Part shown: positions 6,357-39,872 of the stretch, piece by piece
How positions within the stretch are numbered: position 1 is the first letter of the stretch
Layout of the letters: the number at the start of each line of letters is the position of its first letter
From: Gemmatimonadaceae bacterium
GTDB lineage: Bacteria > Gemmatimonadota > Gemmatimonadetes > Gemmatimonadales > Gemmatimonadaceae
Length of the DNA stretch: 64,000 nucleotides
Reading direction: 5' to 3'
NCBI GenBank assembly: GCA_036493735.1
Contig: DASXPH010000047.1
Span: 1,619 to 65,618, forward strand
Made by a program: the position numbers and the translations under genes
Notes under the pieces: model-generated
The model's input: the letters and a program-made list of their open reading frames with translations, nothing else
Told to the model about the DNA's origin: nothing
Database searches by the model: none

Positions 6357-6849
6357 GCTGCTAGGCTACCTCAAGTGTGATGGGGGAGGGCTCGCGAGGT
6401 AAGCGAGTAAAAACGAGCTAAGCCGTATTGCGTGTGATACGCTACTAGACTGTAATCGGCTGTAACAACTTGCGGAACCGCGAGACGGTCACTTTCTCGC
6501 GCGAACCGGCCGAAATTTCATCTTAAGCGTTCGCTCACATCCGATTCGGCGACCTCATGGTGATGAAGTGTCGGTTAAGAATCGTTTGCCCACTGGCGCT
6601 AAGGCTGCACGCGTATTACGGCGCTGCCTTACGAGTGTGGCGTTGAGGGGATGCGAACTCGGGGCTTGACGGTAGTCCGTCGATCAGCTACGCCGCGGCC
6701 CGTTTCACGGCCCTCGGAGTCGGTTCTGTCGTGGAGGCGCGTCGGCCCGTGGAGGAATGTCCAGGCGGGTCTGCAATGAAGAAGCCCTGGGCAAATGCAC
6801 GCTATAGCGACTTTCGGCCTGGCGGTCCGGCGGCTAAGATTGCCGACCC

Positions 6850-9231: not shown

Positions 9232-9232
9232 C

Positions 9233-10396: not shown

Positions 10397-10428
10397 TCAG
10401 GTCGTATCACGTAGCACCGAGGCATCTC

Positions 10429-11025: not shown

Positions 11026-11052
11026 ACTCTGGGTGATCAGACGGAGACAACG

Positions 11053-11988
11053 ATGAACCGGATGCTCGTATGCCAGACGGCGCTCCTGTTGCTCGCGTCG
11101 TCCCTCGCCGCCCAACCCATGAACGTTGCCCAGCGACTCGGCTACCCCGCCAATTCAAAGTTGCTCATCCTGCACGGCGATGACCTCGGCGTGGCGCATT
11201 CGGTGAACGTCGCCAGTCTCGACGCGCTCGACCGTGGCGCGATCACGTCGGCGAGCATCATGATGCCGACGCCATGGGTGACGGAGGTCGCGGCGTACGC
11301 AAAGGCCCGTCCCGACGCGGATCTCGGGCTGCACCTTACCCTGACGAGCGAATGGGAGACATATCGGTGGGGGAGCGTCGCGTCGAAGGATCAGGTGCCG
11401 AGTCTCCTCGGCCCGGACGGAACCTTTCCGAGCGACGTACCGCCGGTCGTCGCGCGCGCGAAGGCGGCGGAGGTCGAGCGCGAGCTGCGGGCGCAGGTGG
11501 AGCGCGCGCTGGCGATGGGGATCCATCCCACGCACCTCGACAGCCACATGGGCGCGCTGTTCGTGACGAACGATCTCGTCGCGACATATATCAAGGTCGC
11601 GCACGACTATCACCTACCATTTCTCGCGATCCGTGGCTTTCCGGCGGGCGTGACTCAGGTGCCGCTGGGGCCGAACGATGTGGTGCTCGACAATGTCGTC
11701 ATCGCTGGCCCCGAGATCGCGCGCGACCACTGGAAGGAGTTCTACCTGAACACGATCGCGAATCTCAAACCGGGCCTCACGGAGATCATCGTCCACCTCG
11801 GCCACGACGACAGTGAGCTGCAGGCGGTGACGGTGAACCACGAGCCCTATGGCTCAGCGTGGCGGCAGCGCGATTACGACGTCGTGAATAGCGCGGAGTT
11901 CAAGAAGGCGCTGAAGGACAACAACGTGATTCTCATCCGCTATCGGGACTTGCAGAAATTGATCGGCCAGCCGCTCGGGATGAAATAA
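11053..11988 (+). CDS. YdjC/ChbG-family carbohydrate deacetylase-like protein, secreted
   Basis: 311 aa with a signal peptide. It contains LILHGDDLGVAHSVN and GLHLTLTSEW motifs typical of the YdjC family. Confidence 0.75.
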   Translation: MNRMLVCQTALLLLASSLAAQPMNVAQRLGYPANSKLLILHGDDLGVAHSVNVASLDALDRGAITSASIMMPTPWVTEVAAYAKARPDADLGLHLTLTSEWETYRWGSVASKDQVPSLLGPDGTFPSDVPPVVARAKAAEVERELRAQVERALAMGIHPTHLDSHMGALFVTNDLVATYIKVAHDYHLPFLAIRGFPAGVTQVPLGPNDVVLDNVVIAGPEIARDHWKEFYLNTIANLKPGLTEIIVHLGHDDSELQAVTVNHEPYGSAWRQRDYDVVNSAEFKKALKDNNVILIRYRDLQKLIGQPLGMK

Positions 11989-20598: not shown

Positions 20599-22083
20599 AT
20601 GAAGGTCATCCTTGCCCTGGATCAGGGCACCACCAGCTCCCGCGCCATCGTCTTCGACCACGCCGGCTCGATCGTCGCCGTCGCGCAGAAGGAGTTTAGG
20701 CAGATCTTCCCGAAGCCCGGCTGGGTGGAGCACGATCCGCGCGACATCTGGTCGTCGCAGGCGGGGGTCGCGGCCGAGGCGCTGACGAAGGCTGGCGCCG
20801 CGGCGACGGACGTCGCGGCCATCGGGATCACCAATCAGCGCGAGACGACGATCGTCTGGGATCGCGCGACTGGGGAGCCGGTGTGCAACGCCATCGTCTG
20901 GCAGGATCGACGCACGGCAGCAATCTGCGACCGACTGAAGGCGCGAAAGCTCGATCGAGTCATCCGCCGGAAGACGGGGCTCGTGATCGACGCGTATTTC
21001 TCGGCGACGAAAGCGCAATGGATTTTAGAGAATGTGAAAGGCGCGAAGGCGCGCGCGAAGCGGGGCGAGCTGGCATTCGGGACAGTGGATTCCTGGCTCG
21101 TCTGGCAGCTCACCGGCGGCCGCGTGCACGTGACCGACGCGAGCAATGCCTCGCGGACGATGCTCTTCGACATCGCAAAGGGCGAGTGGGATGAGGAGCT
21201 GCTGAAGATCTTCGGCGTCCCGCGCTCGATGCTTCCCGAGGTGCGTTCTTCGAGTGAGGTCTACGGCGAAACAACGCTCCTCGGCGCATCGATTCCGATC
21301 GCGGGCATTGCCGGGGACCAGCAGGCAGCGCTCTTCGGCCAGGCGTGCACGAAGCCTGGCATGGCCAAGAACACCTACGGCACGGGTTGTTTCATGCTCA
21401 TGAACACGGGCACAAAGCGCATCGCGTCGAAAAACAACCTGCTGACGACGGTTGCCTGGCGGATCGGCGACCGCACCGAGTACGCGCTCGAGGGGAGCAT
21501 CTTCATCGCCGGCGCCGTGGTGCAGTGGCTCCGCGACGGTCTCGAGTTCTTCCGCGCCGCCCCGGAGATCGAGGCGCTCGCGCGGAGCGTCCCCGATACG
21601 GGCGGTGTCTATCTCGTGCCGGCGTTCGCGGGGCTCGGGGCACCCCACTGGGATCAGTATGCGCGTGGCACGATCGTCGGCCTCACGAGGGGCACCACCA
21701 AGGCGCACATCGCCCGTGCCGCGCTGGAGTCGATCGCGCTCCAAACGATGGACGTGCTCGTGGCGATGCAGGCCGACGCCGGGATCAAGCTCAAGCAGCT
21801 CCGGGTGGATGGCGGCGCGAGCGCGAACAACCTCCTGATGCAACTGCAGGCGGACTTGTTAGGTGTGCCGGTCGTCCGTCCAAAAGTATCCGAGACGACC
21901 GCGTTAGGCGCCGCCTACCTCGCCGGTCTAGCCGTGGGCTTCTGGAAGTCGACGGCTGAGATCGCGCGTCAATGGCAGGTGGACCGGGAGTTCAAACCGG
22001 GGATGAAGGGGACGGAGCGGAAGCAGATTGCGAGTGGATGGGAGCGTGCGCTGGGAAGGGCAAAAGGGTGGGAGACGGCGTGA
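20599..22083 (+). CDS. glpK: Glycerol kinase
   Basis: 494 aa. The N-terminus is [27 protein letters not shown], with FGGY-family motifs throughout. The C-terminus EFKPGM..W..A..R..GW resembles E. coli GlpK. Confidence 0.95.
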
Positions 22084-24337
22084 CGGCGCGGCCGGGCCAC
22101 CAGTTCCACTTGCCCGCCAGCGCCAGCAATGCGGGGCTGACGGCGAGCCGCATCACCGTCGCGTCGAGAAGCACCGCGACCGCGAGTGCGAAGCCGAGCA
22201 TCTTCATGAGAAGGAAGTCGGCGAACATGAAGGCCCCGAACACGACGATCATGATTGCAGCGGCACTGGTGATCAGGCGGGCCGTATCAGCCAGGCCGTC
22301 AGCAATCGCGGCACGTTCCTCGGCGCCGCGCTGACGCGCCTCGCGAACGCGAGCGACAAGGAACACCTCGTAGTCCATGCTCAGGCCGAACACGACGCAG
22401 AAGACGAGCACTGGGATCGCCGGAAAGATGGCGCCGAGCGGCGCGGCAATGCCTAGCCAGCGCGCGCCGATGCCATCCTGAAAGACGAGCGTCACGGCGC
22501 CGAAAGCGGCCGCGACCGCGAGCAAGTTGAGGACGATGGCCTTCAGAGGCACGAGCAGCGAGCGGAAGCCAATGGCGAGCACGAGGAAGGTCGCCCCCAC
22601 GATGAGGCCGACCACCTCGAGGAATCGCCGTCCTCCGGAAACGGCGTCCTGATAATCGACGTTGAGCGCGGGAAGTCCACCGACTCGTACTCGTGCCGCT
22701 CCGGGGCCGGTGACGAGCATGGGTGGCGCGGCCCGCGTGCGCCTAACGAAATCGCCGAGCTGCTGGGGAGTGGCGCCCTCACGCGGGATGGCCTCGAGCA
22801 TTGCGATTCGGCCGTCGCGGCTCACGAACGACGCGCGCACGTCGGGCGGCACCGCAGCGACGAGCACAGATCGCGGCAATGTCGCGCCCAACGGGGCGAC
22901 GAGTCCGGGGAGTGACCGGACACGCGCGACGGCGGGATCCGCGACCAGTAGCCTTGCGAGCCGCGTCGTTGCTGCCCAGCCGCTGTCGTCGACCGCGGTG
23001 ACGCCGGGCGGCATCTCGACCGTAACGCGCACCGTCTGCACGACGGAGCCGCGTCCCATTGCCTCGAGCGCATGCAGCGCGACAGCCGATTCCATCGTCG
23101 CCGGCAGCCAGTTTCCTCGCGGTTGGCCGACGGCGAGACGGCGTGCCTGCCAGGCCAGTGCGCCGACTGGCAGCGCCGCGAGAACGAGCACGAGTGCGGG
23201 GTAGCGCGTCACCAGCACCGCCCAGCTACGCCATCGCGTCTTCGGCGCTCGCCTGTTGTTCATCCTCGAAGGGCGCCCACGCTGGATCGAGAGCCGGCCG
23301 AAATCCACTCGCCCGCCCATCATTGCCAGAGCGCCGGGGAGGAGTGTCGTGGTGATGAGCATCGACGCCAGCGTCACCAGCAGCCCACCAACGGCGACCG
23401 ACCGCAGTTCGTTCACAGGGAGCACCGCCAGTGCGCCGAAGCCGATCGCGACGGCCGTACCCGAAAGCAGGATCGTCGGTCCAGCGGCAGCCAGGGCGTC
23501 TCTCGCCGCGCGCTCGCGATCGCGGCTCTCGCCCAGCTCCGCGCGGAAGCGTTGCACGACGAGCAGCGAGTAATCGATGCCAAGGCCGAGGCCGATCATC
23601 GTGACGACATTCTGGAGCAGGATGGAGAGCGACCAGACGTGTGCCGCGAGCGCCGCCAGCCCTAACGACACACCGATTGCGATCATCGCGCCGGCCACTG
23701 GGAGCAGCGCGGCGATGATCGCTCCAAAGGCGGCGAGCAGGAGAACGAAGCTCAATGGTAGGGCGCGCCATTCCGCGCCCCGGGCGTCGCGAGCGCTCGT
23801 CCGCCGGAGATCGGCGTTGAGCGCGCTCTCGCCAGTCCAGCGCAGAGCGGCGCCAGGAAATCGGCGGACGAGCGCCGTCGCGAGGCGAGCCGTCGACGCG
23901 CGCATGCTGTCGAGGCGCTGGTCGGGAGCGATCCGGTCGTCGACGCCGACGACGAGAAAGGTGCCGCCGTCGCTTCCCAGGAAGATGGAATCATGGCCGT
24001 CCAGGTAGCTCACAACGCGTGCGACACCGGACATCGCGTGTACGGAGTCGACGACGAGTCGGAGTGTGGTGTCGCCAACGGGAGTCGCCGGCGACGGAAC
24101 GCTCGACGCGACGAGCACGAGCGGGTGGGCCAACGATGAGCCGAAGCGTCGCGCGAGCTGCTCGTCGACCATCGCCGACTCGCTGCCGCCAACACGCGCG
24201 GCGACGCCGAGGAGGGACTCGATCCGTCGTGCACCCGGAAGCAGTAGCAGACAGGCGAGTAGCCACACGGTTGCGACGCGTCGTCGCCGTCTAACGATCA
24301 AAGCCGCCAACGTCGCGTGATACGCCTCGAGACTCAT
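21992..24337 (-). CDS. MMPL-family (RND-like) membrane transporter
   Basis: 781 aa with two 6-TM modules carrying [15 protein letters not shown] and [17 protein letters not shown] motifs. Its ATG overlaps the GNAT stop (ATGA at 24334-24337). Confidence 0.85.
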
Positions 24338-25470
24338 ACGAGGGCGATCTCGTAGTGGAGGGGCCGGTCGGCGAGGGGCGGCCCGACGTAGTCACCGCCG
24401 GGTGTGCAGACGTACGCGTTGACGTTCGTCGGCTGCGTGAAGAGTCCGTCGAGGGCCGAGCACAACGGGTCGCACAGGTCGAGACCGATCGTCGCGAACG
24501 CATAGTGCGCCGCGCGCAGCTCGGCGTGGCTGCGCCGAAGCAGCGCGCGGAGCACTTGCGGCTGCTCCGGCCGTACGCAAACGTGAACGGCAGTCCGATA
24601 TCGGAGCGATCCGCCGACCTCGGGCAAACCGACTCCACCCGTTAGGCCGCCAAGGGCGTTAACGATTGCTCGCGCAACGCGCAGTCGAGGCGAGTAGCGC
24701 GTCACCTGCATCTGCTTGAATGATTCCTGGTCCCACCACCCCAGGAATCCGACGATGCGTCCGCGTCGATCACGAGCGACGCGATAGTCCGTGATCGCGA
24801 GAGAAGGCGCGGCCTGAATCCAGGCCGCGAGTGAATCGGCCGTGAAAGCTGGTGCAAACTGGCGATGCGCAGCAACGCTTGCCCAGAGCTCGGCCATCTC
24901 GAGAACATCGCATGCCCTAGCTGGCGTGATGACGAGACCGTCCGTTGCCTCGCGCCGTGAGAAAAGGAGCGGGATCGAGAAGACTCGAATCGTGGCAAAG
25001 CGCCCGAAGCGAGGCACGAGACCGCGGCCAGCGGTGCGATGCTCCATCGCGCGATTGCCGGCCAGAATCGTCAGCAGCAGCGGAGTGTCGCTCCCGCCCA
25101 TCTCGGCGAGGGTGCATCGCACCCATTCGCTCAGCGCGTCCGCGACACCGGCGCGGCGCGCCGCTGGGTGCACCTTGAGATCGCCGGCATACAGTGTGGG
25201 CTGCGCGACGCCGTGCAGGTAAGCTTGTCGCACCGCGCCCATGACGCAGCCGACGACACAGCCGTCGACTTCCGCGACGCCGACTCGCCACGCCGTGCCC
25301 TCGAGCCGAGCGAGCTGGAAGAAGTCGGGCTGGCGCGTCACGCGCAGCGCGATGTCGCCCTCCATCGAGCAGGCGGCGGCGATGGCGACGAGTGCGTCAT
25401 TGTCGGCGGGCTCGGCATCGCGGACAGTGATTCCCTGCGTGGCTGGAGTCGTTAGGCTCACGGCGACCAC
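24334..25470 (-). CDS. Large two-part GNAT-family acyltransferase
   Basis: 378 aa with a GTG start. The N-terminal half has a GNAT acetyl-CoA-binding-like region (LKVHPAARRAGVADAL). The C-terminal half is unassigned. Confidence 0.7.
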   Translation of the reverse strand: MVAVSLTTPATQGITVRDAEPADNDALVAIAAACSMEGDIALRVTRQPDFFQLARLEGTAWRVGVAEVDGCVVGCVMGAVRQAYLHGVAQPTLYAGDLKVHPAARRAGVADALSEWVRCTLAEMGGSDTPLLLTILAGNRAMEHRTAGRGLVPRFGRFATIRVFSIPLLFSRREATDGLVITPARACDVLEMAELWASVAAHRQFAPAFTADSLAAWIQAAPSLAITDYRVARDRRGRIVGFLGWWDQESFKQMQVTRYSPRLRVARAIVNALGGLTGGVGLPEVGGSLRYRTAVHVCVRPEQPQVLRALLRRSHAELRAAHYAFATIGLDLCDPLCSALDGLFTQPTNVNAYVCTPGGDYVGPPLADRPLHYEIALV

Positions 25471-26639
25471 CCGGTGTCAACACGACAGAGAGCGAAGCGT
25501 CGCTGTACCACACTTCGGTCACAGCGCATGAGCCGCTGGCCCAGCACGCGATCTTCGACGATGACGTCCCGGTAGCGCAGTGGAATTTCGGTCCAGCCAA
25601 CGAAATTGCGGAAGCACAGCACGGCGCCCGGTACGGCGGTGCGCGTGATCTCGCCAAAGAGATCGAGCAGCTGATTGGGTGACAGCCACTCGCAGATGTT
25701 GGAGAGTACGAAGCCAGTGACGCTATTCGGTGCGAGCGCACGCAGATACTCCGTCATCGTACCATCCACGAGCGCGAGTCGGTCAATGGCATCGGCCGCC
25801 GCGTCGTGTCCCGTGCGGCTCAGATACGGTGGTACGCCATCGAATGCGTCGACCGGATATCGCCCCGTGAGCATGTGGTGCACGAAGTAGTTGTCACGCA
25901 CCGGCAGCTCGGTGAGCGTTTCCTCCGCGCGAACTCGGAAATGTTCGGCGAAGCTCGGTCGATGGAGATGAGCGAAGAACGCCGGATCGTACGTGCGACG
26001 AAACACGCCGCGATTCAGCAATAACTGGAAGAAGAGCCGCCAACGGCGGGTATTCCATTCGCGAGCAAAGAGCTCGCGCTGCTCGTCGAGCGATGTCGCG
26101 GCCAGCATCCGCTCGATGCGTGACCGAGGATGCACGAAGAGCCGTAACGCGAGCGCGAGGTTGCGAACGAACTTTTCTGTGACGCCTACTCCGAGCACGC
26201 CTGCCGCGACGTCGGGCAGGCGGCCATCCCAGTAGGCGCACGCCGGCGCCGTGAGGCGCGAGCGCAAGATGGCGTACGCGTCGATTCGCCCGAGCGCCGA
26301 GCCGTCGGCCGCGCCTAGGAAAACAAACGTCTCACGATGACCGAGAACAGCAATGGCCGCGAGCTTGAGCTCGATGAGGTGATTCTGGGTGCGGTTGAGA
26401 TCGACCGCGGTGACGTGACCCGCGCCGGCGGCGAGCAGTGAGAGCGCTGTACACCCCGCCGACCCGACGACGACAACCGAATCGTTAGGCCCGGGATCGA
26501 GGGCCTCGATCTCGAGCCGAGGGTCCTCGCGCACCTGAGCGAAGTAGAGTCGATCGTCGACGGAGCCCGGAAGCGTGGTGCGAAGTAACGCGAAGGGCGC
26601 AGCGCGCGCGGAGGGGTCGGAGGGAACGGTCAGGCGCAT
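25458..26639 (-). CDS. DUF3419 / BtaA-like SAM-dependent (3-amino-3-carboxypropyl transferase-like) protein
   Basis: ATG at 26639. YFAQVREDPRLEIEAL..VVVVGSAGCTALSLL matches the BtaA/DUF3419 N-terminal signature. The first ~230 codons of track ORF 25458..27338 overlap the neighbouring gene in another frame and are rejected. Confidence 0.7.
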   Translation of the reverse strand: MRLTVPSDPSARAAPFALLRTTLPGSVDDRLYFAQVREDPRLEIEALDPGPNDSVVVVGSAGCTALSLLAAGAGHVTAVDLNRTQNHLIELKLAAIAVLGHRETFVFLGAADGSALGRIDAYAILRSRLTAPACAYWDGRLPDVAAGVLGVGVTEKFVRNLALALRLFVHPRSRIERMLAATSLDEQRELFAREWNTRRWRLFFQLLLNRGVFRRTYDPAFFAHLHRPSFAEHFRVRAEETLTELPVRDNYFVHHMLTGRYPVDAFDGVPPYLSRTGHDAAADAIDRLALVDGTMTEYLRALAPNSVTGFVLSNICEWLSPNQLLDLFGEITRTAVPGAVLCFRNFVGWTEIPLRYRDVIVEDRVLGQRLMRCDRSVVQRRFALCRVDTGWSP

Positions 26640-27175
26640 GCGAGCTCCTGCCATCCGTACTCGCTCATCAGCTGCTTGCGAATCGCGGCGTCGGCGGCGC
26701 TGTAACGGCGCATCAGAGTCGGGATCGCCGAGCGGCGTGAGCCCGTCTGTCGGTCGAGCCACTCTTTCACCCACGAGAGATGTCCGCGCTCGTCGGCGAG
26801 CATGCGGCGGAGCGTCGCCTGGACGCGTGGGTGCGTACCAGGCCGGCGCAGATGCGCCACGAAGTGGCGATAAACGCCGCGCTCGAATACCTGGGTCAGT
26901 GCCAGCACCTCGAGCAGTGACGTTGGCGTGCCGATCACACCGGCGTATCGCGATTGATAGGTATCTGCGGTGGGAGTCGGACGGCCTCCGACGTCGACGA
27001 TGGTCTCGGTCCAGAGCTGCGCGTGAAGGACTTCCTCGGCGCTGTGCGCCGTCAATCGCACTATGAGATTCGCGTCGCGCACATGCTGAACGAGGCGGCC
27101 GAGAATCAATCCACCCTGCAGCTCGGATGCACGATAGAAGTTGAGCACCGTGAGCTCGCGATAGTTGATTTCCAT
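26630..27175 (-). CDS. Ferritin-like four-helix-bundle diiron protein
   Basis: ATG at 27175 (MEINYRELTV). It shows an E...EXXH...E...EXXH pattern (ASELQG, AEEVLH, VFERG, ADERGH). Confidence 0.65.
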   Translation of the reverse strand: MEINYRELTVLNFYRASELQGGLILGRLVQHVRDANLIVRLTAHSAEEVLHAQLWTETIVDVGGRPTPTADTYQSRYAGVIGTPTSLLEVLALTQVFERGVYRHFVAHLRRPGTHPRVQATLRRMLADERGHLSWVKEWLDRQTGSRRSAIPTLMRRYSAADAAIRKQLMSEYGWQELACA

Positions 27176-27177
27176 GG

Positions 27178-27924
27178 TCAGACCTCCAGTTCGCTCTTGA
27201 GGTGATCGACGATGCGCCTGCCGCACAGCCGTTCGATGCGGGTGGCGAAGGTGCGGATGGCGATCTCGTCGCCTTCCATGGCGGTCGGTACTTCGCCGAC
27301 CGCCTCCTCGCCGTAGTGGCGGAAGTGCGCCGCGGCACGCAGCACGTCAGGCGCCAGCTCCGGATGCACGGCGATGCGCTGAGCGATCAGATCGGATGCC
27401 GACTGTGCGTGACGGACCTCGTCGGCTGCGATGTAGGCCAGTAGCTCGCGCAGCTGCGGCTCGCGCGCCTGCTCGCCGAGCCGACGAAAGAAGTATGCGG
27501 CGAGATGCTCGCTGAGCATGAACTCGACGAGCGGCGACACGGGATCGCCGGGATCGAGGTCGTCGCGGCTCGCGCGCTGACGGATCCGCCGCAGCTCGTC
27601 GTTCGTGATACTGGGCTCGTAGCCAACCGCGTCGAGGTACATGCGCAAGGCGTGGAAGTGCTTGAATCCCTCGTACATCTCGAGTGAGAACACGACGCCC
27701 GCGTCCACGTCGTCCCACGCGAAGCGAATGAGACGCGAGAGATTAACGGGATGGAAAGACTCGATGAGCGCCGCGTCGCGGAGCTTCGCGAGAATCTCCG
27801 GCTGCGAGAGCGCGACGTCCCGATCGATCTGCCCCCAGTGGATGTCGCGCTCCACGGACCAAGCGGCGCGATCGGCAGCACGTGCGTGACGTACATAGAG
27901 TGAATGGGCATGTAGATCACGCAT
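27178..27924 (-). CDS. Ferritin-like diiron-carboxylate superfamily protein (oxygenase/desaturase-like)
   Basis: ATG at 27924 overlaps the stop of the ligase gene. Candidate metal ligands are LIESFH, EGFKHFH, SEHLAAY and ADEVRH. The exact family was not resolved. Confidence 0.55.
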   Translation of the reverse strand: MRDLHAHSLYVRHARAADRAAWSVERDIHWGQIDRDVALSQPEILAKLRDAALIESFHPVNLSRLIRFAWDDVDAGVVFSLEMYEGFKHFHALRMYLDAVGYEPSITNDELRRIRQRASRDDLDPGDPVSPLVEFMLSEHLAAYFFRRLGEQAREPQLRELLAYIAADEVRHAQSASDLIAQRIAVHPELAPDVLRAAAHFRHYGEEAVGEVPTAMEGDEIAIRTFATRIERLCGRRIVDHLKSELEV

Positions 27925-28828
27925 GGGCCCTCTCCTCCTGCTGCAGCTCGGGAAGCGCCGGCCAGCCCGACGCATCCGCTCCGTGCCTGACGAGGAACGC
28001 GAGCAGCCAACGCTCGAGCCCGAACGCGACACAGGCCGTCGTCACCGGCTCCCCTGTCGGCAGCGTGATGTCGAACGCGTCGCCGAAGAAGGGCCCGTGC
28101 AGATTGAACGACGACGCGGCGATCCGCCGATGTGCGGCGATCGGCAGCAGGAGCTCGTGCTTGAGCTCCATGAGTTGCTGAAGTAGCTGCTTGGCGCGAG
28201 CCGCCGGTGCGAAGAAGGGATCGGTCGCGACTTCGATCGCGCCCTGCAGCCCGAGGGTGCGCGCGAAGTCCCAGACACGATCGATCGTGCGGACGAGGAA
28301 CGCACGAGCATCATTCATCGAGCCGAGGCAGACGATCTCACGCATCGTGAACGTCCAGCCTCGCTCCAACGCGCCGTGACTGCTCTCGTGTCGCCAGCAC
28401 GCCGCCTGTGCGGTCACGAGACGTGGCGCTTCCAGCACCGATCCGGCAAGGCTGGAGTACACGTGGTAGCAGACAGCTGGGTTGAGCACCGCTTTCGGTG
28501 GCGCGAGTGCACCGCGCACCGCCAACGCCGGATCGTTATGCCCGGCGACCGCGCGGAGGGCATCGGTGTCGTCGGTCAAATGCGACGCGACGGTGAGCCA
28601 TTGTGGAAAGGAGGTGAAGTAATCGGCACGCACGAGCGTGGCGAAATCGATAGCGGGTGGAACGGACCAGTCGTCGCCGGCCTCCATTCCGCAAAGGGAT
28701 GCGATCGCCCGCTCGAGGGCGCGTGAGAGCTTCGCGACGTCTCCGCGCAACGCCGTCACGCCCGGTACCGGTTCCCATAGCTCGCCGCGCTCGCGCAGCG
28801 TCGCGATGACTCGGTCACGCGGCCACAT
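27917..28828 (-). CDS. Amino acid:[carrier protein] ligase, a truncated class-II SerRS-like enzyme
   Basis: About 303 aa with no tRNA-binding arm. Class-II-like motifs are NPAVCYHVY, CWRHESS, RGWTFTMREIVCLG, RIAASSFNLHGPFFGDAFDI and TTACVAFGLERW. It lies immediately downstream of a carrier-protein gene. The start (28828 vs 28873) is uncertain. Confidence 0.7.
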   Translation of the reverse strand: MWPRDRVIATLRERGELWEPVPGVTALRGDVAKLSRALERAIASLCGMEAGDDWSVPPAIDFATLVRADYFTSFPQWLTVASHLTDDTDALRAVAGHNDPALAVRGALAPPKAVLNPAVCYHVYSSLAGSVLEAPRLVTAQAACWRHESSHGALERGWTFTMREIVCLGSMNDARAFLVRTIDRVWDFARTLGLQGAIEVATDPFFAPAARAKQLLQQLMELKHELLLPIAAHRRIAASSFNLHGPFFGDAFDITLPTGEPVTTACVAFGLERWLLAFLVRHGADASGWPALPELQQEERAHA

Positions 28829-29102
28829 CGGCGCCTCCCGTGTCGTCCCCACGACGTGCAAAAGTGTCGGCAATCTGCCTAACGCTGCGGAAGTAGTCCA
28901 TGCGAATCCGGGAATCGGGAATGCGGATGTCGAGCGCCCGCTCCGTCCAGGCGATGAGCTTCAGGATGCGAATGGAGTTGATGAGTCCATCGGCAAAGAG
29001 CGCCGTGTCGGCGTCTATCGTGACACTCGGTGGAACAAGCGTTCTGTTGATCCACTCGACTGTGCGCGCGACGAACGACGCGTAGTCCATTTGCGCGCTC
29101 AT
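28815..29102 (-). CDS. Acyl/peptidyl carrier protein
   Basis: 95 aa. FADGLINSIRILKLI fits the phosphopantetheine attachment motif (Ser in LINS). Its ATG overlaps the reductase stop (ATGA at 29099-29102). Confidence 0.75.
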   Translation of the reverse strand: MSAQMDYASFVARTVEWINRTLVPPSVTIDADTALFADGLINSIRILKLIAWTERALDIRIPDSRIRMDYFRSVRQIADTFARRGDDTGGADVAA

Positions 29103-30202
29103 GCGGCACTCCTCGCCAAAGCGTCGACGCGTGTGGACACCATGCGATCGAGCATCGCCGGCCAGAACTCACGGACCGCGGGCGCTGGGTGACCGAGCAG
29201 AGTGTCGGCGTTCGTCGTGACGAATCGCTTGGGCAATGCGAGCTGCGGTACGAAATGCGAGAGCGCGCGGGTGATCCGCTTGAGCGACGCGTCCGCGACG
29301 TCCTCGACGGTCTGTTCGAAGAGCGCGTACGTCGCCAACTCGGCGAGCGCCGGCCGTGCGATGCCACGACGCCGCCAATCGGGGTCGCGTGCCCAGCGCT
29401 CGTACGTCACGTCGAGGAGCTCGACGAGTGGTAATGCGCCCTCACCGGCGCAGAGATGCACGGTGCGCCCATGGGCGCTTTCGGCGAGCGCGAGTCGCGC
29501 GATCGCGTCCGCGACGTAGGCAGTAGTGACGACGTCGATGGTGGATCCGGCGACACCCGGCATCATGGCGACGAGCCCGCCATACAGGAGCCGGAGCGCG
29601 CGATGCACGGCGTTCACCTGCGTCACGCGCCCATCGATGCCATCGCAGACGATGGTGCTCGGCCGGAAGATCACCCAACTTGCCGCGTCGGCGCGCACGA
29701 GCTGCTCAGCTTCGTACTTCGACTGCTCGTACGCGTTCACCCAACCGTCACTTCCGCCGCTCGGGTCTTCCGCGATCACGCCTGTGCAGCGGCCGGCGAC
29801 GAAGGCAGTGCTGACGTGCGCGACGTGTATCGCCGAGGCACACTCGTCTCCGAGCTCGAGAACGCACCTCGTGCCCGTGGTATTCACCTCGCGGGCCCGA
29901 TCGAGCGAGTTCGAAAATGTCGTATCGGCAGCGAGATGGACGATCGCCGACAGCTTGCGACATAGGAGCGCGTGGTCGTTGGGCGCGAGCCCGAGCTCCG
30001 GCACGCGCAAGTCGCCCTGGACGGGCACCACTCGGCGAACGTCCTCGAGTGCGACCGAGGCAACGGACCACCGCGCGAGATCGCGCACGAGCACGTAAAC
30101 GTGCAGGAGCGGATCGTCGGCGAGGAGTCGCGCCAATACCTGACGTCCGAGCAGGCCTGTAGCGCCGGTCAAGAGAATGGAACGTCCTGAGGTCATGGTC
30201 AT
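29099..30202 (-). CDS. Stand-alone thioester reductase-type SDR (NAD-binding, R-domain-like)
   Basis: ATG at 30202 (MTMTSGRSILLTGATGLLG). It has a YEQSK catalytic motif and VHLAADTTF..VNTTGT typical of terminal reductase domains. Confidence 0.8.
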   Translation of the reverse strand: MTMTSGRSILLTGATGLLGRQVLARLLADDPLLHVYVLVRDLARWSVASVALEDVRRVVPVQGDLRVPELGLAPNDHALLCRKLSAIVHLAADTTFSNSLDRAREVNTTGTRCVLELGDECASAIHVAHVSTAFVAGRCTGVIAEDPSGGSDGWVNAYEQSKYEAEQLVRADAASWVIFRPSTIVCDGIDGRVTQVNAVHRALRLLYGGLVAMMPGVAGSTIDVVTTAYVADAIARLALAESAHGRTVHLCAGEGALPLVELLDVTYERWARDPDWRRRGIARPALAELATYALFEQTVEDVADASLKRITRALSHFVPQLALPKRFVTTNADTLLGHPAPAVREFWPAMLDRMVSTRVDALARSAA

Positions 30203-31167
30203 GCCTCGACGGCCAGCGCCGTCCAGTGGGCGCCGAAGCCATAAGAGAAGAGGAGCAGGCGATCGCCGGGCCGCACGTTGCCGTCGTCGAGTGCGTCGCG
30301 CAGGTTGATGAAATTGTCGCCGGCGAGTGTGTGCCCGAGGCGACTGATGTTGCGGCACCAGAGTCGCTCGCGCGCGATGCCGGTGAGGCCGAGCAGGATC
30401 TCCCAGCTGCGGACGCTCACGTTGTGAGGAATCACCCAGGTGACATCGTTAGGCGACCAGTGCGCGCTGTTGAGTGTTTGGGCGATCACGTGCCGCGCGG
30501 TGGGGAAATAGGAAGCGACGATCTCGTTGCGCAGTGCGTCGCCATCCCAGTAGTAGCCCTTCGTCACGTGGGACGAAGCGACGATCCGATTGCGCTCGGC
30601 GCCCGCTTCGACCAAGAGCGCGACCGCGGCGTCGGCAGTGCAGTTGTAGATCGCCTCACGCCCCGCGCAGTTGGGGAAGAATTCCGACGAAACGCAGAGC
30701 ACGCGCTGCGCTTCGCCGGCGGCAATCAGCGAGCGCGCGATCCGGACACCGGCAAAGAGCGAGGTGCACGCCGCCTGATCGAGCGCGAGCACCGATGCTC
30801 GGTCGAGATCGAGGTCATATTGGAGGCGCGTCGCCGGATACTGGAAGCGGCGGGTGGTAGCGAGCTGACCGGCGGCGTCGGCCGCGCTTCCCGCGCGCGC
30901 GAACGCTACGGCGGGCGTGCCGCAGTAGAGCAGTGCGTCGATGCTTGCCGGAGTGATCGACCGCTCGCGCAGCAGCGACCACGCTGCCGCGAGGGCGAGA
31001 TCATAGGGCGTCTCCTCGTCGGCGACCGCGACCTCGGCAAAGCCGAGCCGCGCGAGCATGCGCGGCTCGCTCTCCAGCTCGCCGAGCGCGTGAAGCTCAC
31101 CTAACGAGCGCCGTGTGGGTGGCAGGACGTAAGCGATGCCGCTGATCCCGATCGGCGGCGCCATCAT
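30199..31167 (-). CDS. KAS III (FabH)-like thiolase-fold condensing enzyme or acyltransferase
   Basis: ATG at 31167. The active-site Cys context is DQAACTSLF and the His context is VIPHNVS. The third motif reads LGHTLAGDN where FabH has GNTSAAS. Confidence 0.8.
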   Translation of the reverse strand: MMAPPIGISGIAYVLPPTRRSLGELHALGELESEPRMLARLGFAEVAVADEETPYDLALAAAWSLLRERSITPASIDALLYCGTPAVAFARAGSAADAAGQLATTRRFQYPATRLQYDLDLDRASVLALDQAACTSLFAGVRIARSLIAAGEAQRVLCVSSEFFPNCAGREAIYNCTADAAVALLVEAGAERNRIVASSHVTKGYYWDGDALRNEIVASYFPTARHVIAQTLNSAHWSPNDVTWVIPHNVSVRSWEILLGLTGIARERLWCRNISRLGHTLAGDNFINLRDALDDGNVRPGDRLLLFSYGFGAHWTALAVEA

Positions 31168-31841
31168 GCGGCCTCCAGTACGACGACCGCGGCCACCATG
31201 CCAAGCAGGCGCGGAAGTCTCACGACATACGCACGCGCGGGCTGCCACTCGCTGTCGACGCGCACACCGGAGAGGAGGCGATCGTCGCTCGTGACGTCGA
31301 GCTCGAGCGCCGCGAATGGCAAATCTGCGTTGAGCCGAAGCGCCTTCCACGCCGCTTCCTTGAGCACCCACGCCAGCGTCGCGTCGAGGCGGCGCATGGC
31401 ACGCTCGCCCGTACCAAGAAAGAGACGGCGCTCATGAGGGGCGATGGTGCCTTCGCGCTCGACGTCGACTCCGATAGGCGTCGTCGGATCGCTGGCCGCG
31501 GCGACGGCGACACCGTCGCAGTGACCAATCGAGAGGGTGACCGCCAGCGGTGTCCACGATCCATGCGCGAGGAGCGAGCAGGTCGGCGCGCCGGCGATTT
31601 GTGTCATGAGGCAAAGCCGATTGATCGACGCGCCGCGCCGCCTTGCCACGGCGCGTTTCGCGGCGCAACGGCCGGCGAGCCAATCGCCGCGGCGTATGTC
31701 GTACCGCAGCGCGTCGTATTCACTCCGCTCAGCTGCAGTCAGGATCTCGGTCCCGATCGCGGCCCGGTGGGCAATAGCAAGTGTGAATGGGGTGCGCCCG
31801 AGTGGGCGCGCCGACCTGGCTGTCCGCATCCATCTTCTCAT
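31164..31841 (-). CDS. Sfp-type 4'-phosphopantetheinyl transferase
   Basis: 225 aa with GVDVE and WVLKEAAWKAL motifs. It is the first gene of the operon. Confidence 0.8.
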   Translation of the reverse strand: MRRWMRTARSARPLGRTPFTLAIAHRAAIGTEILTAAERSEYDALRYDIRRGDWLAGRCAAKRAVARRRGASINRLCLMTQIAGAPTCSLLAHGSWTPLAVTLSIGHCDGVAVAAASDPTTPIGVDVEREGTIAPHERRLFLGTGERAMRRLDATLAWVLKEAAWKALRLNADLPFAALELDVTSDDRLLSGVRVDSEWQPARAYVVRLPRLLGMVAAVVVLEAA

Positions 31842-31981: not shown

Positions 31982-34405
31982 ATGGATCGCTTGCGTCAGG
32001 ATATACGCGTCGCGCTGCGCGGCTTCCGCCGCACCCCATCGTTCACGATCACCGCCATCGCGATCCTCGCCATCGGGATCGGCATGGCCGTCGCGATGTT
32101 CACTGTCTACGACGCGGTGGTCGTTCGGAATCTGCCCGTTCCGGCGCAGGACCGGATCGTCGAGCTCTTCACCTATCGGGACAACCCGAACACCGACTAC
32201 TACCTGTTGCGCGGCGATCTGCGCCAGGTCGCGGCGGGCAGCCTAACGATGCACGACATTGCCGGCGTCGCGCACTGGGGCGAAGTAACGGCGCCATTTC
32301 TCGACGGCGACCGAACGCTCATTATCGGGCGGACATTCGTTAGCGGCAACTTCTTCGACGTGCTCGGTGCCCGGCCGCTGCTCGGCCGCTTCATGCGACC
32401 GAGCGATGACCTGCCTGGCGCCGCGCCGGTGCTCGTGCTCAGCTACAGCGCGTGGAAGCGCTTCTTCGACGCCGATCCACACGTCGTCGGCAGGAAACTG
32501 GTCGAGCCCTACTCGCGACGTGGCTTCGAGGTCATCGGCGTCGCGCCAGCGGGATTGGATTATCCCACGGGCGTCGGCGTCTGGATGCCACCCTGGCAAC
32601 CGTCGGACAATCTCTCCGTCATCGCCCTCGCGCGGATCGCGCCCGGCGCGTCGGTGCGTGACGCACAGGAGGAATTTTTCGCGAAGATGCGCCGCCTGCC
32701 CCAGATCGACGTCGGCGGTCCTCGCGACTACAAGGGTGTGCACATTCGTACCTTCACCCAGGCGGTCGTCGGCAACGTTCGGCCGACACTCGTGACGCTC
32801 ACGGCGGCTGTCGGTCTCCTGCTGCTCATCGCGTGTGTCAACGTCGGCAACCTCCTCCTCGTGCGCGCCGCGGAACGAGCACGCGAGCTCTCGATACGTC
32901 GCGCGCTCGGCGCATCATTGGGTATGATCGTCAGGCAGCTCGTGGTCGAGAGCGCGCTGCTCGGGGTTGCCGGTGGCGTGCTCGGCTTCCTCACCGCTAT
33001 CGCGCTCATCAAGCTCCTCATTGCCGCCGCGCCGCCCAAGTTGCCACGGCTCGACGACATCGCTATTGCCGGCATGCCGCTCGGCATGGCGCTTCTCGTC
33101 ACCATCGGCGCCGTGGGCCTCTTTGGTGTGGTGCCCGCGCTGCTTGGCTCGTCGTCCGAGCTCGCGTCGCCGCTGCGCTTCGATTCGCGCGCGGGACGGA
33201 CGACGCGTGGCGGCCAGCGGCTGCGTCGCACGCTCGTAGGGTTGCAGGTGGCACTCGCCCTCGTCATGCTCGCCGGCGCCGGCCTGCTCGTCCGCAGCCT
33301 CGAGCACCTCCAGAGCATCACCCTCGGTTACAACCCGGAGCACCTCACGCTCGTCGACGTGACGTTCACGCCTAACGAATACGGTGGCGTGTCCGGCAAC
33401 GTCGATCAGCGCAAGCTGAACAATCTCGCGGACCTTCTGGTGCCAGCGTGGCGGGCGATTCCGGGGGTTGCCGGCGTGACCCCGTCGCTGGTCCCGCCAT
33501 TTCTCGGACCGGGTATCTTCGTCGGCCCCGCGCTCAAAGAGGGCAACTCGCCGCAGGAGGACAAAGCCGCGCCCCAGATGCCCGTCGAGGCGGGGGGAAC
33601 GGACTACTTCCGCGTCATGGGCATTCACCTCCTGCGCGGCCGAGGCTTCACCGACGCGGACCGGGAGGATGCACAATATGTCGCCGTCGTGAGCCAGAGC
33701 GCGGCGCGGCGTCTGTGGCCTAACGAAGACCCGATCGGCAAGCGGATGCATTACTGGTCTGCGGATACGATCTGGCGCACCGTCGTCGGCGTCGCTGACG
33801 ATATTCGGTGGCGATCGCTCCGCGATCCGACGCCGACGATCTACTTGCCATGGCGACAGGCGTACTGGCAGGGGTCTTTCGCCATCCGGACGTCCGGCGA
33901 TGTCAGCGCGGTTCTCCCCGCCATCCGTCGCGCGACGCACGAGATCAATCCCGTGCTGACGGTCTGGGAGGCGCTTCCGATGGACAACCTGCTCGCGGGT
34001 CCGCTCGCGCAGCCGCGCCTCGGGGCGTTGCTTCTTGGCGCGTTCGCGTTTGTGTCGATGCTGCTGGCGGCGATTGGCCTGTATGGCGTAATGGCGGCGA
34101 TCGTGACGGCGACGACCCGGGAGATCGGCGTCCGCGCCGCCCTTGGCGCGAGCCCAGAGCGGCTGCGTCGTGACGTTCTCGCCGAGGCGTTAGGCATGGC
34201 CGGTGCGGGCGTCATGGTCGGGTTGGTCGTCGCGCTCGGCGCGTCGCGTCTGCTGTCGTCATTGCTGTTCGAGGTGAGCCCCGGCGATCCACTTGCGGTG
34301 ATTGGCGCACTCGTCGTCCTGCTCCTCGTCGCGCTCGGGGCAGCGTACATTCCAGCGCGTCGCGCGACTCGCATCGACCCAGCGACGGCGCTCCGGGCTG
34401 ATTGA
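31982..34405 (+). CDS. ADOP/MacB-like permease, paralog 2
   Basis: 807 aa. The N-terminus is MDRLRQDIRVALRGFRRTPSFTITAIAILAIGIG. It has duplicated FtsX modules and the C-terminus RIDPATALRAD. Confidence 0.85.
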   Translation: MDRLRQDIRVALRGFRRTPSFTITAIAILAIGIGMAVAMFTVYDAVVVRNLPVPAQDRIVELFTYRDNPNTDYYLLRGDLRQVAAGSLTMHDIAGVAHWGEVTAPFLDGDRTLIIGRTFVSGNFFDVLGARPLLGRFMRPSDDLPGAAPVLVLSYSAWKRFFDADPHVVGRKLVEPYSRRGFEVIGVAPAGLDYPTGVGVWMPPWQPSDNLSVIALARIAPGASVRDAQEEFFAKMRRLPQIDVGGPRDYKGVHIRTFTQAVVGNVRPTLVTLTAAVGLLLLIACVNVGNLLLVRAAERARELSIRRALGASLGMIVRQLVVESALLGVAGGVLGFLTAIALIKLLIAAAPPKLPRLDDIAIAGMPLGMALLVTIGAVGLFGVVPALLGSSSELASPLRFDSRAGRTTRGGQRLRRTLVGLQVALALVMLAGAGLLVRSLEHLQSITLGYNPEHLTLVDVTFTPNEYGGVSGNVDQRKLNNLADLLVPAWRAIPGVAGVTPSLVPPFLGPGIFVGPALKEGNSPQEDKAAPQMPVEAGGTDYFRVMGIHLLRGRGFTDADREDAQYVAVVSQSAARRLWPNEDPIGKRMHYWSADTIWRTVVGVADDIRWRSLRDPTPTIYLPWRQAYWQGSFAIRTSGDVSAVLPAIRRATHEINPVLTVWEALPMDNLLAGPLAQPRLGALLLGAFAFVSMLLAAIGLYGVMAAIVTATTREIGVRAALGASPERLRRDVLAEALGMAGAGVMVGLVVALGASRLLSSLLFEVSPGDPLAVIGALVVLLLVALGAAYIPARRATRIDPATALRAD

Positions 34406-34501
34406 TCGGTGAACGGTGGTCAGTGATCGGTGATCGATAGACCTCAGTTCACGACTCACAGCTCACCGTTCACTGTTCACCGTCCACCGACCCTACCGAC
34501 C
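34404..34501 (+). repeat. Intergenic spacer made entirely of about 14 successive 7-mers, self-complementary (terminator-like)
   Basis: The spacer reads GATCGGT GAACGGT GGTCAGT GATCGGT GATCGAT ... AGTTCAC GACTCAC AGCTCAC CGTTCAC TGTTCAC CGTCCAC. It runs from the permease stop to the next start codon. Confidence 0.75.
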
Positions 34502-35260
34502 ATGAGCGACACGAACCCGACCCGTCGTGAATTTCTGCAGCGCTCGGCTGCGACCGCGGCGCCGGCTCTGATCGGGCTGCATGCATCGCTACCATCGGGC
34601 GCAGCTCCGCTGAAGGTGGTCTGCGTCGGCGGTCATCCCGACGATCCTGAATCTGGCTGCGGCGGGGCGCTCGCTCGTTACGCCGCTGCCGGCGATTCCG
34701 TGACCATCGTCTATCTCACACGCGGCGAGCGCGGCATCGACGGCAAGTCGCTGGACGAGGCGGCGCGCATTCGCACCGCGGAGTCGGAGTCGGCGTGCAA
34801 GTTTATAGGCGCAAAGCCGGTCTTCTTTGGCCAGATCGACGGCGCGACGGAAGTCACCCATGCGCACGTCGACGCGATGACGAAGCTGCTCGCCGCCCAG
34901 CAGCCGGACGTGCTGTTCGCGCACTGGCCGGTGGACACGCACATGGACCACCAGGTTGCGAGCTTACTCACCATCCGCGCGTGGATGCAGCTCCGCAGCC
35001 CGGCACTCTACTTCTTCGAGGTAAACAGCGGCAGCCAGACCGAGGGATTCTACCCGAACACTTACGTGGACATCTCGGCTGTCGTCGAGCAGAAGAAGCG
35101 CGCGCTCTTCGCGCACGTGAGCCAGGACGGCCAGGGTATCTGGCGCGAGCACCACGCGATCATGGCAACGTGGCGTGGACGCGAAGCAGGTGTGGCCGCG
35201 GCCGAAGGTTATGTGCACCTCGATCGCGTGAGCACGACAAGCAAGCTTCCCGGGATGTGA
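34502..35260 (+). CDS. PIG-L/LmbE-family deacetylase with a Tat signal
   Basis: ATG at 34502 (MSDTNPTRREFLQRSAATAA). It has the VGGHPDDPESGCGG motif plus later HxDH. Confidence 0.8.
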   Translation: MSDTNPTRREFLQRSAATAAPALIGLHASLPSGAAPLKVVCVGGHPDDPESGCGGALARYAAAGDSVTIVYLTRGERGIDGKSLDEAARIRTAESESACKFIGAKPVFFGQIDGATEVTHAHVDAMTKLLAAQQPDVLFAHWPVDTHMDHQVASLLTIRAWMQLRSPALYFFEVNSGSQTEGFYPNTYVDISAVVEQKKRALFAHVSQDGQGIWREHHAIMATWRGREAGVAAAEGYVHLDRVSTTSKLPGM

Positions 35261-39281: not shown

Positions 39282-39286
39282 GACGA

Positions 39287-39631
39287 CTATGGTGCCTCCC
39301 GTCTGGGTGCGAGGAACGCCGCGATGAGGTCCGCCGTCTGGTTCCACTCGCGGGTCTCGCGCGCGAGCTGCTTGCGGCCGGCGGCCGTGAGTCCGTAGTA
39401 CTTGGCGCGGCGATTGTTCTCCGACTGGCGCCACTCCGCCTTGATGAAACCCTCCTGCTCCAGCTTCAGCAGGGCGGGGTAGAGTGTGCCGTAGTTGAGG
39501 CTGAGGCGGAATTTGCTGACTTCCTCGATCCGCCGGGCGATGCCGTAGCCGTGGAGCGGCCCGAGCCCTTCGAGCGTCTTGAGGATCATCAAGGCGAGCG
39601 TACCTTGCTGGACTTCGAGCTTCTCGGGCAT
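39287..39631 (-). CDS. PadR-family transcriptional regulator
   Basis: 114 aa. GTLALMILKTLEGLGPLHGYGIARRIE..LYPALLKLEQEGFI is a canonical PadR winged helix. Confidence 0.9.
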   Translation of the reverse strand: MPEKLEVQQGTLALMILKTLEGLGPLHGYGIARRIEEVSKFRLSLNYGTLYPALLKLEQEGFIKAEWRQSENNRRAKYYGLTAAGRKQLARETREWNQTADLIAAFLAPRREAP

Positions 39632-39644
39632 GTTGCGTCTTCCT

Positions 39645-39722
39645 ATTGGTTTCCCATATCACGCTACGGTCGGTAGCCTGGCGGCGCAAGGCTCGGCAGC
39701 GGCCTCGTATGGGTTTCCAATA
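39645..39722. promoter_or_regulatory. Pair of related 14-15-bp sites in the padR/M28 divergent promoter (candidate PadR operators)
   Basis: ATTGGTTTCCCATA (39645-39658) and TATGGGTTTCCAATA (39708-39722). The flanking half-sites are reverse complements and the central TTT is retained. Confidence 0.35.
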
Positions 39723-39872
39723 CGGGACGACCGTTCGGCCGGTTTCAGCCGCTCGTGCCAGTCGCCTGACGGCGCCAATCAATACGAATTCCGAACAAGA
39801 CTCCGCGAGGCTCCCGACTGCGGCGTGCCCTTCCGCGAGATAAGTTCTCCGCAAATCCGGCAGGAGTGACCC

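Follow-up and report, generated by a model that had tools for sequence, protein, structure and literature searches.

The 64,000-nucleotide stretch of DNA analysed here, called the window throughout (Gemmatimonadaceae bacterium, assembly GCA_036493735.1, contig DASXPH010000047.1, positions 1,619 to 65,618), encodes a predicted amino acid:[carrier protein] ligase (aa:CP ligase) directly behind its own carrier protein (CP). From its sequence, the ligase very probably charges the adjoining CP with an amino acid. The pair lies within a ten-gene operon, and the whole is best explained as a thiotemplated route that starts from the aminoacyl-CP and probably leads to an exported lipid of the amino-alcohol type. 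The aa:CP ligases were described structurally and kinetically between 2010 and 2013, and the ligase–CP pair itself is a known kind of enzyme; new here are a divergent subfamily and its pathway context. An earlier note on this DNA, made from the sequence alone, held that the downstream pathways of the family are unknown. This agrees with a 2022 review, which describes as unknown what biological role the loading of these carrier proteins with amino acids plays (PMC9437257), and with full-text literature searches, which returned no paper on such an operon and no newer work giving aa:CP ligases a role. The minus strand of positions 27917–29102 is made up of two overlapping open reading frames (ORFs), which encode the following proteins:

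28815..29102, minus strand: dedicated carrier protein, 95 aa, with a PP-binding match and a predicted phosphopantetheine site at Ser43 (DGLINS)
27917..28828, minus strand: predicted aa:CP ligase, 303 aa, with a class II aminoacyl-tRNA synthetase (aaRS) catalytic core of the methanogen seryl-tRNA synthetase (SerRS) type and without a tRNA-binding domain

The four motif strings quoted in the earlier note (NPAVCYHVY, CWRHESS, RGWTFTMREIVCLG and SSFNLHGPFFGD) are all present in the translation of the minus-strand ORF 27917–28873. The most probable start of the ligase within this ORF is the ATG at 28828, which gives a protein of 303 aa and has the sequence GGGAGG located 6 nt upstream. The ligase homologues are 297–312 aa long and align from residue 1, which fits with this start. 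The stop codon of the carrier gene occupies 28815–28817, so the ligase ATG overlaps the 3' end of the carrier gene, whose stop lies 14 nt inside the ligase gene, and the ligase is predicted to be translationally coupled to the CP. The longest possible ligase would begin at the TTG at 28873 and comprise 318 aa. An in-frame stop is found 30 codons above this TTG and the DNA there codes for the carrier protein in another frame, so that no choice of start can provide a tRNA-binding arm, the absence of which had been pointed out from the sequence.

The ligase exhibits homology to NCBIfam model NF005479 (amino acid--[acyl-carrier-protein] ligase; E 8.6e-52) and to the type-2 SerRS model NF002120 (E 3.2e-20), and the type-2 SerRS models match it over their last 200 positions only (301–499 of 518). 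The best match in a sequence search of the protein data bank (PDB) is Bll0957, the glycine:[carrier protein] ligase of Bradyrhizobium (E 1.5e-38, residues 38–291), followed by the type-2 SerRS of M. kandleri (3w3s, E 2.3e-13) and the SerRS of M. barkeri. An AlphaFold2 model of the ligase, built on 44 homologues (pLDDT 85.5), was compared with the PDB using Foldseek. The ten best structural matches are all Bll0957 (TM 0.75–0.85), with methanogen-type SerRS ranking next and bacterial SerRS after these; TM scores normalised to the query are 0.78–0.83 for the M. kandleri and M. barkeri enzymes. This comparison with published ligases and SerRS cores bears out the identity proposed earlier, and by sequence and predicted fold the protein is assigned as a clear member of the aa:CP ligases, ahead of methanogen-type SerRS.

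Residue conservation was read from the alignment of 44 ligase sequences, which spans two phyla. C120, R146, E148, E164, C266 and R273 are invariant. R146 and E148 (CWRHE) belong to motif 2 and R273 (GLERW) to motif 3, and the ATP-binding arginines are kept in all 44 sequences, as expected for the class II synthetase-like core that had been described. C120 (AVCYH), E164 (TMREIVC) and C266 (TACVAF) align to the Bll0957 chain residues C151, E196 and C299. A 20-residue tag offset places C120 and C266 on Cys131 and Cys279 of Bll0957 and E164 on Glu176, which are reported (Mocibob 2010) to be its zinc ligands (C131/E176/C279). C120, E164 and C266 are therefore the residues predicted here as zinc ligands. 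Both cysteines of the zinc site suggested in the earlier note are retained in this prediction, but its glutamate, in the string RHES, is not: E148 is the fRxE residue of motif 2, and the zinc glutamate is placed in TMREIVC because E164, not E148, aligns with the glutamate of the Bll0957 site. The segment that differs between engineered and wild-type Bll0957 in 4h2w aligns to approximately residues 209–219 of the ligase, largely inside a predicted helix (211–220), and Q217 and K223 are invariant in the 44 sequences.

The carrier protein is matched by PF00550 (PP-binding) with an E value of 2.5e-5 and resembles type II peptidyl carrier proteins and the aminoacyl carrier proteins crystallised together with aa:CP ligases. 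Ser43 of the DGLINS motif is the sole serine invariant in nine carrier proteins of related loci. The cognate aminoacyl carrier proteins of two characterised ligases, 4h2w_C (Bll0957) and Atu2571 (Atu2573), are detected with E values of about 2e-3. There is also a weak NCBIfam match to the OlsHI ornithine-lipid acyl carrier protein (ACP), which was discarded as it leads to an unrelated GH3-dependent pathway.

The closest named aa:CP ligases are Bll0957 and Bll6282 of Bradyrhizobium and Atu2573 of Agrobacterium (PDB 3mey, 3mf1, 3pzc, 4h2s). With these the window ligase shares a truncated methanogen-type SerRS core of about 300 aa, the Cys/Glu/Cys triad, motifs 2 and 3, and a small dedicated carrier protein encoded next to it. 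It differs from them in sequence, with about 35% identity over a 259-column HMMER alignment, and in having wholly different neighbours from the rhizobial genes, which are arranged as ACP – acyl-CoA dehydrogenase – ligase – DUF1839. The catalytic fold and the zinc-dependent active-site architecture are predicted to be shared with methanogen-type SerRS as well (M. barkeri 2cj9, M. kandleri 3w3s); unlike these enzymes of about 500 aa, the ligase lacks the N-terminal tRNA-binding domain, and its identity to them is only about 19–22%. Of the sequence-level features of the aa:CP ligase family, the SerRS-type core, the Cys/Glu/Cys triad, the motif 2 and 3 arginines, the missing tRNA arm and the neighbouring carrier gene are present, but the NCBIfam equivalog score is not reached. 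In a neighbour-joining tree the ligase falls together with ligases from operons of a similar kind and is separated from Bll0957 and the rhizobial members (22/30 bootstraps). Given this separate clade and an NCBIfam score below the cutoff, the ligase is placed in a divergent subfamily and is not regarded as an orthologue of Bll0957 or Atu2573.

Among 1.84 billion cluster representatives, a search identified 1809 family members at E<=0.001, 316 of them at E<=1e-30, and the close homologues carry only the source names seryl-tRNA synthetase or hypothetical protein. In the wider family (P0249–P0390), the majority of the 50%-cluster representatives have a length of 376–423 aa and an N-terminal extension of about 95 aa. 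The extension was considered as a carrier domain, but in the few 380–420-aa relatives scanned it gave no Pfam match and no carrier domain was detectable. One representative of 743 aa (P0303) is a natural fusion of an aa:CP-ligase-like protein to a C-terminal GNAT part, which shows a weak match to N-myristoyltransferase (NMT).

The operon surrounding the pair runs from 21992 to 31841 on the minus strand, and its ten genes overlap by 4–14 nt or abut, with several visible Shine-Dalgarno sequences. In order of transcription, the eight genes besides the carrier protein and the ligase, which stand fourth and fifth, are:

31164..31841, minus strand: Sfp-type 4'-phosphopantetheinyl transferase (PPTase), first gene of the operon (PF01648, E 5.5e-6)
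30199..31167, minus strand: KASIII (FabH)-like enzyme, 322 aa, by Pfam and NCBIfam; active-site Cys kept, Cys-His-His
29099..30202, minus strand: stand-alone thioester reductase, 367 aa (PF07993, NAD_binding_4, E 3.5e-42; TIGR01746, E 5.7e-32)
27178..27924, minus strand: diiron protein FeA, 248 aa, acyl-ACP-desaturase-like (profile against DesA2, 1za0, E 3.6e-9)
26630..27175, minus strand: small diiron protein FeB, 181 aa, COQ7/ferritin-like, with an invariant ligand set
25458..26654, minus strand: DUF3419 (BtaA family) protein, about 398 aa (PF11899, E 4.8e-59)
24334..25470, minus strand: double-GNAT acyltransferase, 378 aa, with an N-myristoyltransferase-like predicted fold (model pLDDT 91)
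21992..24337, minus strand: MMPL-family RND exporter, 781 aa, last gene of the operon (PF03176, E 1.3e-69; MmpL3 model, E 2.3e-72)

On one side the operon is flanked by genes for a glycerol facilitator and kinase and on the opposite side by a MacB/FtsX permease gene of the other strand, all of them unrelated to it. Scans for promoters and terminators across the operon gave nothing informative. The reductase covers the whole fatty-acyl-reductase (Male sterility) domain and contains the motifs TGATGLLG and YxxSK. FeA has invariant E55xxH58 and E169xxH172 motifs, and its family profile matches R2-like oxidases as well as DesA2, the acyl-ACP desaturase homologue of M. tuberculosis. In FeB the residues E18, E48, H51, E98, E129 and H132 are invariant and form a complete E/ExxH/E/ExxH set; the protein shows weak similarity to AurF (E 0.005), and its profile returned generic ferritin-like matches only. 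Single-sequence PDB searches with the DUF3419, GNAT and FeB proteins gave no match. The GNAT model has N-myristoyltransferases as its top 36 structural matches (TM 0.60–0.65), and no Fem or MprF structure is found among the 50 structural matches listed. N-myristoyltransferases are double-GNAT enzymes that place a long acyl chain on a primary amine.

That the pair sits inside a complete operon, as the earlier note had it, is supported by the gene order being kept across many genomes and contigs. The order is conserved in three Gemmatimonadaceae genome contigs (L001–L003), one of them (L001) from a metagenome-assembled genome (MAG) assigned to Gemmatimonas aurantiaca, and two of the three cover everything through MMPL. 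The PPTase gene is kept in L001, L003 and the metagenome loci. Since the single-protein genome scan gave five loci only, the synteny statistics come mainly from metagenome contigs. The ligase profile retrieved 80 of these, and gene order was read from the 27 with a length of 5 kb or more. They carry KASIII – reductase – CP – ligase – FeA – FeB – DUF3419 – GNAT – MMPL as far as each contig reaches, with three exceptions (L038, positions 3378–11148, L063 and L083), which are variant clusters that keep KASIII – reductase – CP – ligase – FeA – FeB. Behind FeB, L038 encodes an ICMT/PEMT-like membrane methyltransferase, a MarR regulator, an outer-membrane beta-barrel protein and an HlyD-AcrB-OEP tripartite pump. 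In every locus examined the CP and ligase genes are adjacent and translationally coupled, and the operon is common in soil Gemmatimonadaceae. A Gemmatimonadaceae MAG contig (L004, JBBJNN010000022.1, 4664–13991) encodes a sister ligase, 52% identical, and keeps PPTase – CP – ligase only; four ORFs of 236–387 aa with no Pfam or NCBIfam match lie ahead of these genes and a LuxR-type AAA/TPR regulator behind them. This locus is possibly a third type of pathway.

Distant ligases, 34–38% identical, are encoded in Catellatospora, Mycobacterium riyadhense, Streptomyces and Thermomonospora. The actinobacterial gene order is KASIII – AurF-family diiron protein (PF11583) – CP – ligase – reductase, and in M. 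riyadhense, Streptomyces and Thermomonospora an FeB orthologue (34–40% identity) follows the reductase. In these three the proteins of the KASIII – diiron – CP – ligase – reductase – FeB core exhibit 30–40% identity. FeB was not detected in the Catellatospora cluster, which keeps the remaining core together with DUF3419 (54% identity) and GNAT (45%); GNAT is missing from most actinobacterial versions. These clusters further contain, in varying combination, AMP-binding enzymes, PEMT/ICMT-like methyltransferases, MMPL, a condensation domain and a PPTase::carrier-protein fusion. The PPTase::PP-binding fusions, which supply a second carrier protein, are located at 12618–13547 of L006 and 12614–13489 of L008, and the M. 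riyadhense cluster also encodes a condensation-domain enzyme and a short-chain dehydrogenase. KASIII, the diiron enzyme, CP, ligase, reductase and FeB are taken as the stable core, because they are shared by the Gemmatimonadaceae and actinobacterial clusters while the other genes, for tailoring and export, differ.

Two further relatives have other surroundings. On the symbiosis plasmid pRgalIE4872c of Rhizobium gallicum (L009, 7488–10808) an annotated canonical ligase is found in the order ACP – acyl-CoA dehydrogenase – ligase – DUF1839, a block that sits between nifDKENX-fdxB genes and an ACC deaminase gene. DUF1839 is mentioned in a 2023 classification of papain-like cysteine peptidases (PMC10318531). 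On a plasmid of Streptomyces sp. NBC_00984 (L010, NZ_CP108735.1, 7362–12231), a 399-aa ligase relative lies inside a cluster of nonribosomal peptide synthetase (NRPS) and polyketide synthase (PKS) genes, in the order 3-hydroxyacyl-CoA dehydrogenase – peptidyl carrier protein – acyl-CoA dehydrogenase – ligase – acyltransferase. This cassette presumably resembles the aminomalonyl-ACP genes of zwittermicin, with the adenylation enzyme replaced by the aaRS-like ligase.

In the favoured reading, the PPTase of the operon would convert the carrier protein to its holo form. By homology, the ligase would bind a small alpha-amino acid at its Cys/Glu/Cys zinc site and activate it with ATP as an aminoacyl-adenylate, and close homology to assayed enzymes suggests that it would then transfer the amino acid to the phosphopantetheine thiol of the carrier (PMC5370406). 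The loaded amino acid is likely to be Gly, Ala or Ser, which the sequence does not narrow further; Gly or Ala would be expected by analogy with the characterised members, and Ser is also possible. A dissociated, type-II-NRPS-like pathway, for which the operon also has the genes, would start from the aminoacyl-S-CP. The subsequent steps are inferred from family membership and synteny only. The KASIII-like enzyme would join a fatty acyl group to the tethered amino acid, by C-C coupling or N-acylation, FeA and FeB would oxidise the tethered chain by desaturation or hydroxylation, and the fatty-acyl-reductase-type enzyme would free the product in the form of an aldehyde or an alcohol. From S-adenosylmethionine (SAM), the BtaA-family enzyme would place a 3-amino-3-carboxypropyl (homoserine) group on a hydroxyl, the GNAT protein of N-myristoyltransferase fold would acylate an amine, and the MMPL protein would export the lipid. 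Processing on the carrier followed by reductive release and export is judged the likelier course on sequence grounds, and what is expected to result is a membrane or envelope lipid that derives from an amino acid and contains no phosphorus. A homoserine-type head group on this lipid is proposed tentatively.

The lipid direction is taken because the reductase is of the fatty-acyl-reductase type, FeA is DesA2-like, the GNAT protein has an NMT fold, DUF3419 belongs to the BtaA family and the exporter is MmpL3-like, and because the clusters of Actinobacteria additionally contain a fatty-acyl-AMP-ligase-like AMP-binding enzyme, a condensation domain, MMPL and a PPTase::CP fusion. BtaA, the founding DUF3419 member, takes the 3-amino-3-carboxypropyl group from SAM and attaches it to a lipid hydroxyl, that of diacylglycerol (PMC6642084). 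The DUF3419/BtaA-family enzyme is what the operon has in common with BtaA/BtaB betaine-lipid (DGTS) synthesis. In the operon, the acceptor would be the amino alcohol released by the reductase and not diacylglycerol, and no methyltransferase family match, as would mark a BtaB-type enzyme, was found in the ten operon proteins by Pfam and NCBIfam.

Several observations weigh against the exported-lipid route or parts of it. The ligase scores 176 bits against the NF005479 equivalog cutoff of 357, the Pfam scan of the ligase gave no match, and its amino acid specificity is not readable from its sequence. In the KASIII-like enzyme the canonical Cys-His-Asn triad is not kept: all eight operon-family sequences checked carry His where FabH has Asn274, and the actinobacterial orthologues additionally carry Gln where it has His244, giving Cys-Gln-His. 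The reaction need therefore not be a standard malonyl-dependent condensation. For FeA, blastp found nothing against the actinobacterial AurF-family proteins, hhalign gave a probability of 0.4% and no AurF Pfam match was obtained; FeA was therefore rejected as an orthologue of the AurF-family gene, its profile pointing to acyl-ACP desaturase. The oxidative step may thus differ between the operon versions, since FeA has no detectable similarity to the AurF enzyme in the equivalent place. DUF3419, GNAT and MMPL are not universal, being replaced in L038. To our knowledge there is no precedent for PLP-independent (pyridoxal phosphate-independent) C-acylation of an aminoacyl thioester, and MMPL and RND pumps export non-lipid metabolites too.

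The main rival to the exported-lipid route is a small-molecule pathway like pvf/ham, in which an A-T-R NRPS and an AurF-like diiron N-oxygenase act on a tethered amino acid (PvfB/PvfC, HamC/HamD; PMC11659414). In such a pathway the diiron proteins would N-oxygenate the aminoacyl-S-CP and the reductase would release it as an N-hydroxy amino aldehyde, which would go on to become a diffusible signal or toxin, by type a pyrazine N-oxide, a diazeniumdiolate or an O-alkyl hydroxylamine. Tailoring or self-protection would fall to DUF3419 and GNAT, and efflux to the MMPL pump. Carrier loading, diiron oxidation of the tethered unit and reductive release would be common to both systems, and the AurF-like oxygenase of ham/pvf oxidises valine tethered to the A-T-R NRPS, which is the same logic with a different loader (PMC11659414). 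The AurF-family gene directly before the CP gene in the actinobacterial clusters, the weak AurF similarity of FeB and the presence, beside the L038 core, of a methyltransferase and of a general efflux pump of the RND type also speak for this pathway. We nevertheless consider it rather unlikely. FeA resembles acyl-ACP desaturase and not AurF, the reductase is of the fatty-acyl-reductase type and the GNAT protein has a long-chain N-acyltransferase fold, and KASIII, the fatty-acyl-AMP-ligase-like and condensation enzymes and the MmpL3-like exporters fit lipid assembly better. The window operon differs from pvf/ham further in its loader, which is class II aaRS-like where pvf/ham have an ANL adenylation domain, in encoding every part, CP and reductase included, as a protein of its own, and in its additional KASIII, BtaA-family, NMT-fold and MMPL genes. 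A starter-unit role is less probable again, and unlikely by a clear measure: here KASIII would condense the aminoacyl-S-CP decarboxylatively with malonyl-ACP to a gamma-amino-beta-ketoacyl chain that is extended or reduced, giving an amino-terminated fatty or polyketide-like alcohol. KASIII enzymes do select starter units, the window enzyme keeps the Cys and two His like the decarboxylating KAS I/II enzymes, and the L010 cassette, with its presumed likeness to zwittermicin genes, suggests that the family can feed PKS-type chemistry. Such a product would be carried on the ACP of fatty acid synthase, whereas the reductase is expected to act on the operon CP; the Gln at the FabH His244 position in the actinobacterial orthologues is a further difficulty, and Pfam and NCBIfam identified no ketoreductase/dehydratase/enoylreductase set and no malonyl-loading enzyme among the operon proteins.

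MprF and VlmA transfer an amino acid from aminoacyl-tRNA, and the double-GNAT protein could by comparison use the charged CP as donor and pass its amino acid to a lipid or another acceptor, with the remaining enzymes building that acceptor. Double-GNAT folds do include aminoacyl transferases, and a ligase::GNAT fusion exists in P0303. This arrangement is nonetheless very unlikely, as GNAT is missing from most actinobacterial versions, the structural matches of the GNAT model described above favour NMT over Fem and MprF, and the GNAT part of P0303 has no detectable similarity to the window GNAT. Least probable, to the point of being hardly credible, is that the protein is not a CP ligase, being either a degenerate fragment of SerRS or a ligase of the amino acid-CoA or amide kind whose gene only happens to lie beside an ACP gene. 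The missing Pfam match and the low NCBIfam score would fit with this, as would the aminoacylation of free CoA and cysteine by aa:CP ligases in vitro (PMC5370406). Against it stand the invariance of the catalytic and zinc residues across two phyla, the CP–ligase adjacency and coupling kept in all loci examined, and the presence of the region aligned to the 4h2w helix engineered for CP recognition. Two other products were rejected. An oxyvinylglycine-type compound (aminoethoxyvinylglycine- or rhizobitoxine-like, formed by reduction of Gly or Ser and then carboxypropyl transfer) found no support in a literature search, and the lipid-type partners speak against it. An aliphatic azoxy pathway was set aside: the azodyrecin cluster relies on an aminoacyl-tRNA transferase of the MprF-like type, and its genes are different.

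Within the exported-lipid reading, a more specific scheme is speculative and has a slim chance of holding as a whole, namely that the operon is a PLP-independent route to a sphingoid-like long-chain amino alcohol. By C-acylation, the KASIII-like enzyme would attach a fatty acyl group to the alpha-carbon of an aminoacyl-S-CP, either glycyl-S-CP or a different one, and the fatty-acyl-reductase-type enzyme would reduce the thioester to the 1-alcohol, giving a 2-amino-3-oxo-alkan-1-ol. N-acylation by the NMT-fold GNAT protein would then produce a ceramide-like molecule, and the BtaA-family enzyme would cap the 1-hydroxyl with a homoserine group. If true, this would represent a new class of phosphorus-free envelope lipid in Gemmatimonadota, with a related core product in Actinobacteria including Mycobacterium riyadhense, and the first physiological role for aa:CP ligases.

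The interest of the operon lies in an orphan function made testable and not in a new principle. An orphan family is found in a conserved operon whose partner chemistry is readable (condensation or acyl transfer, diiron oxidation, reductive release, SAM-dependent alkylation, long-chain N-acylation and export), which turns an open role into concrete experiments, and a class II aaRS core would here replace the usual adenylation domain in thiotemplate biosynthesis. Gemmatimonadota are little studied, Gemmatimonas aurantiaca is cultivable, and M. riyadhense is closely related to the tuberculosis complex. Because the operon is common in soil Gemmatimonadaceae and its core is also present in Actinobacteria including M. 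riyadhense, its product could be of interest to ecology or medicine, as an envelope lipid or exported metabolite that has so far gone unrecognised.

Near the operon, MacB/FtsX-type permease genes are located at 31982–34405 on the plus strand and at 36552–40436 on the minus strand. The latter ORF is probably over-extended at its 5' end, since its domains begin at residue 486. A gene for a PIG-L family deacetylase is found at 34430–35260.

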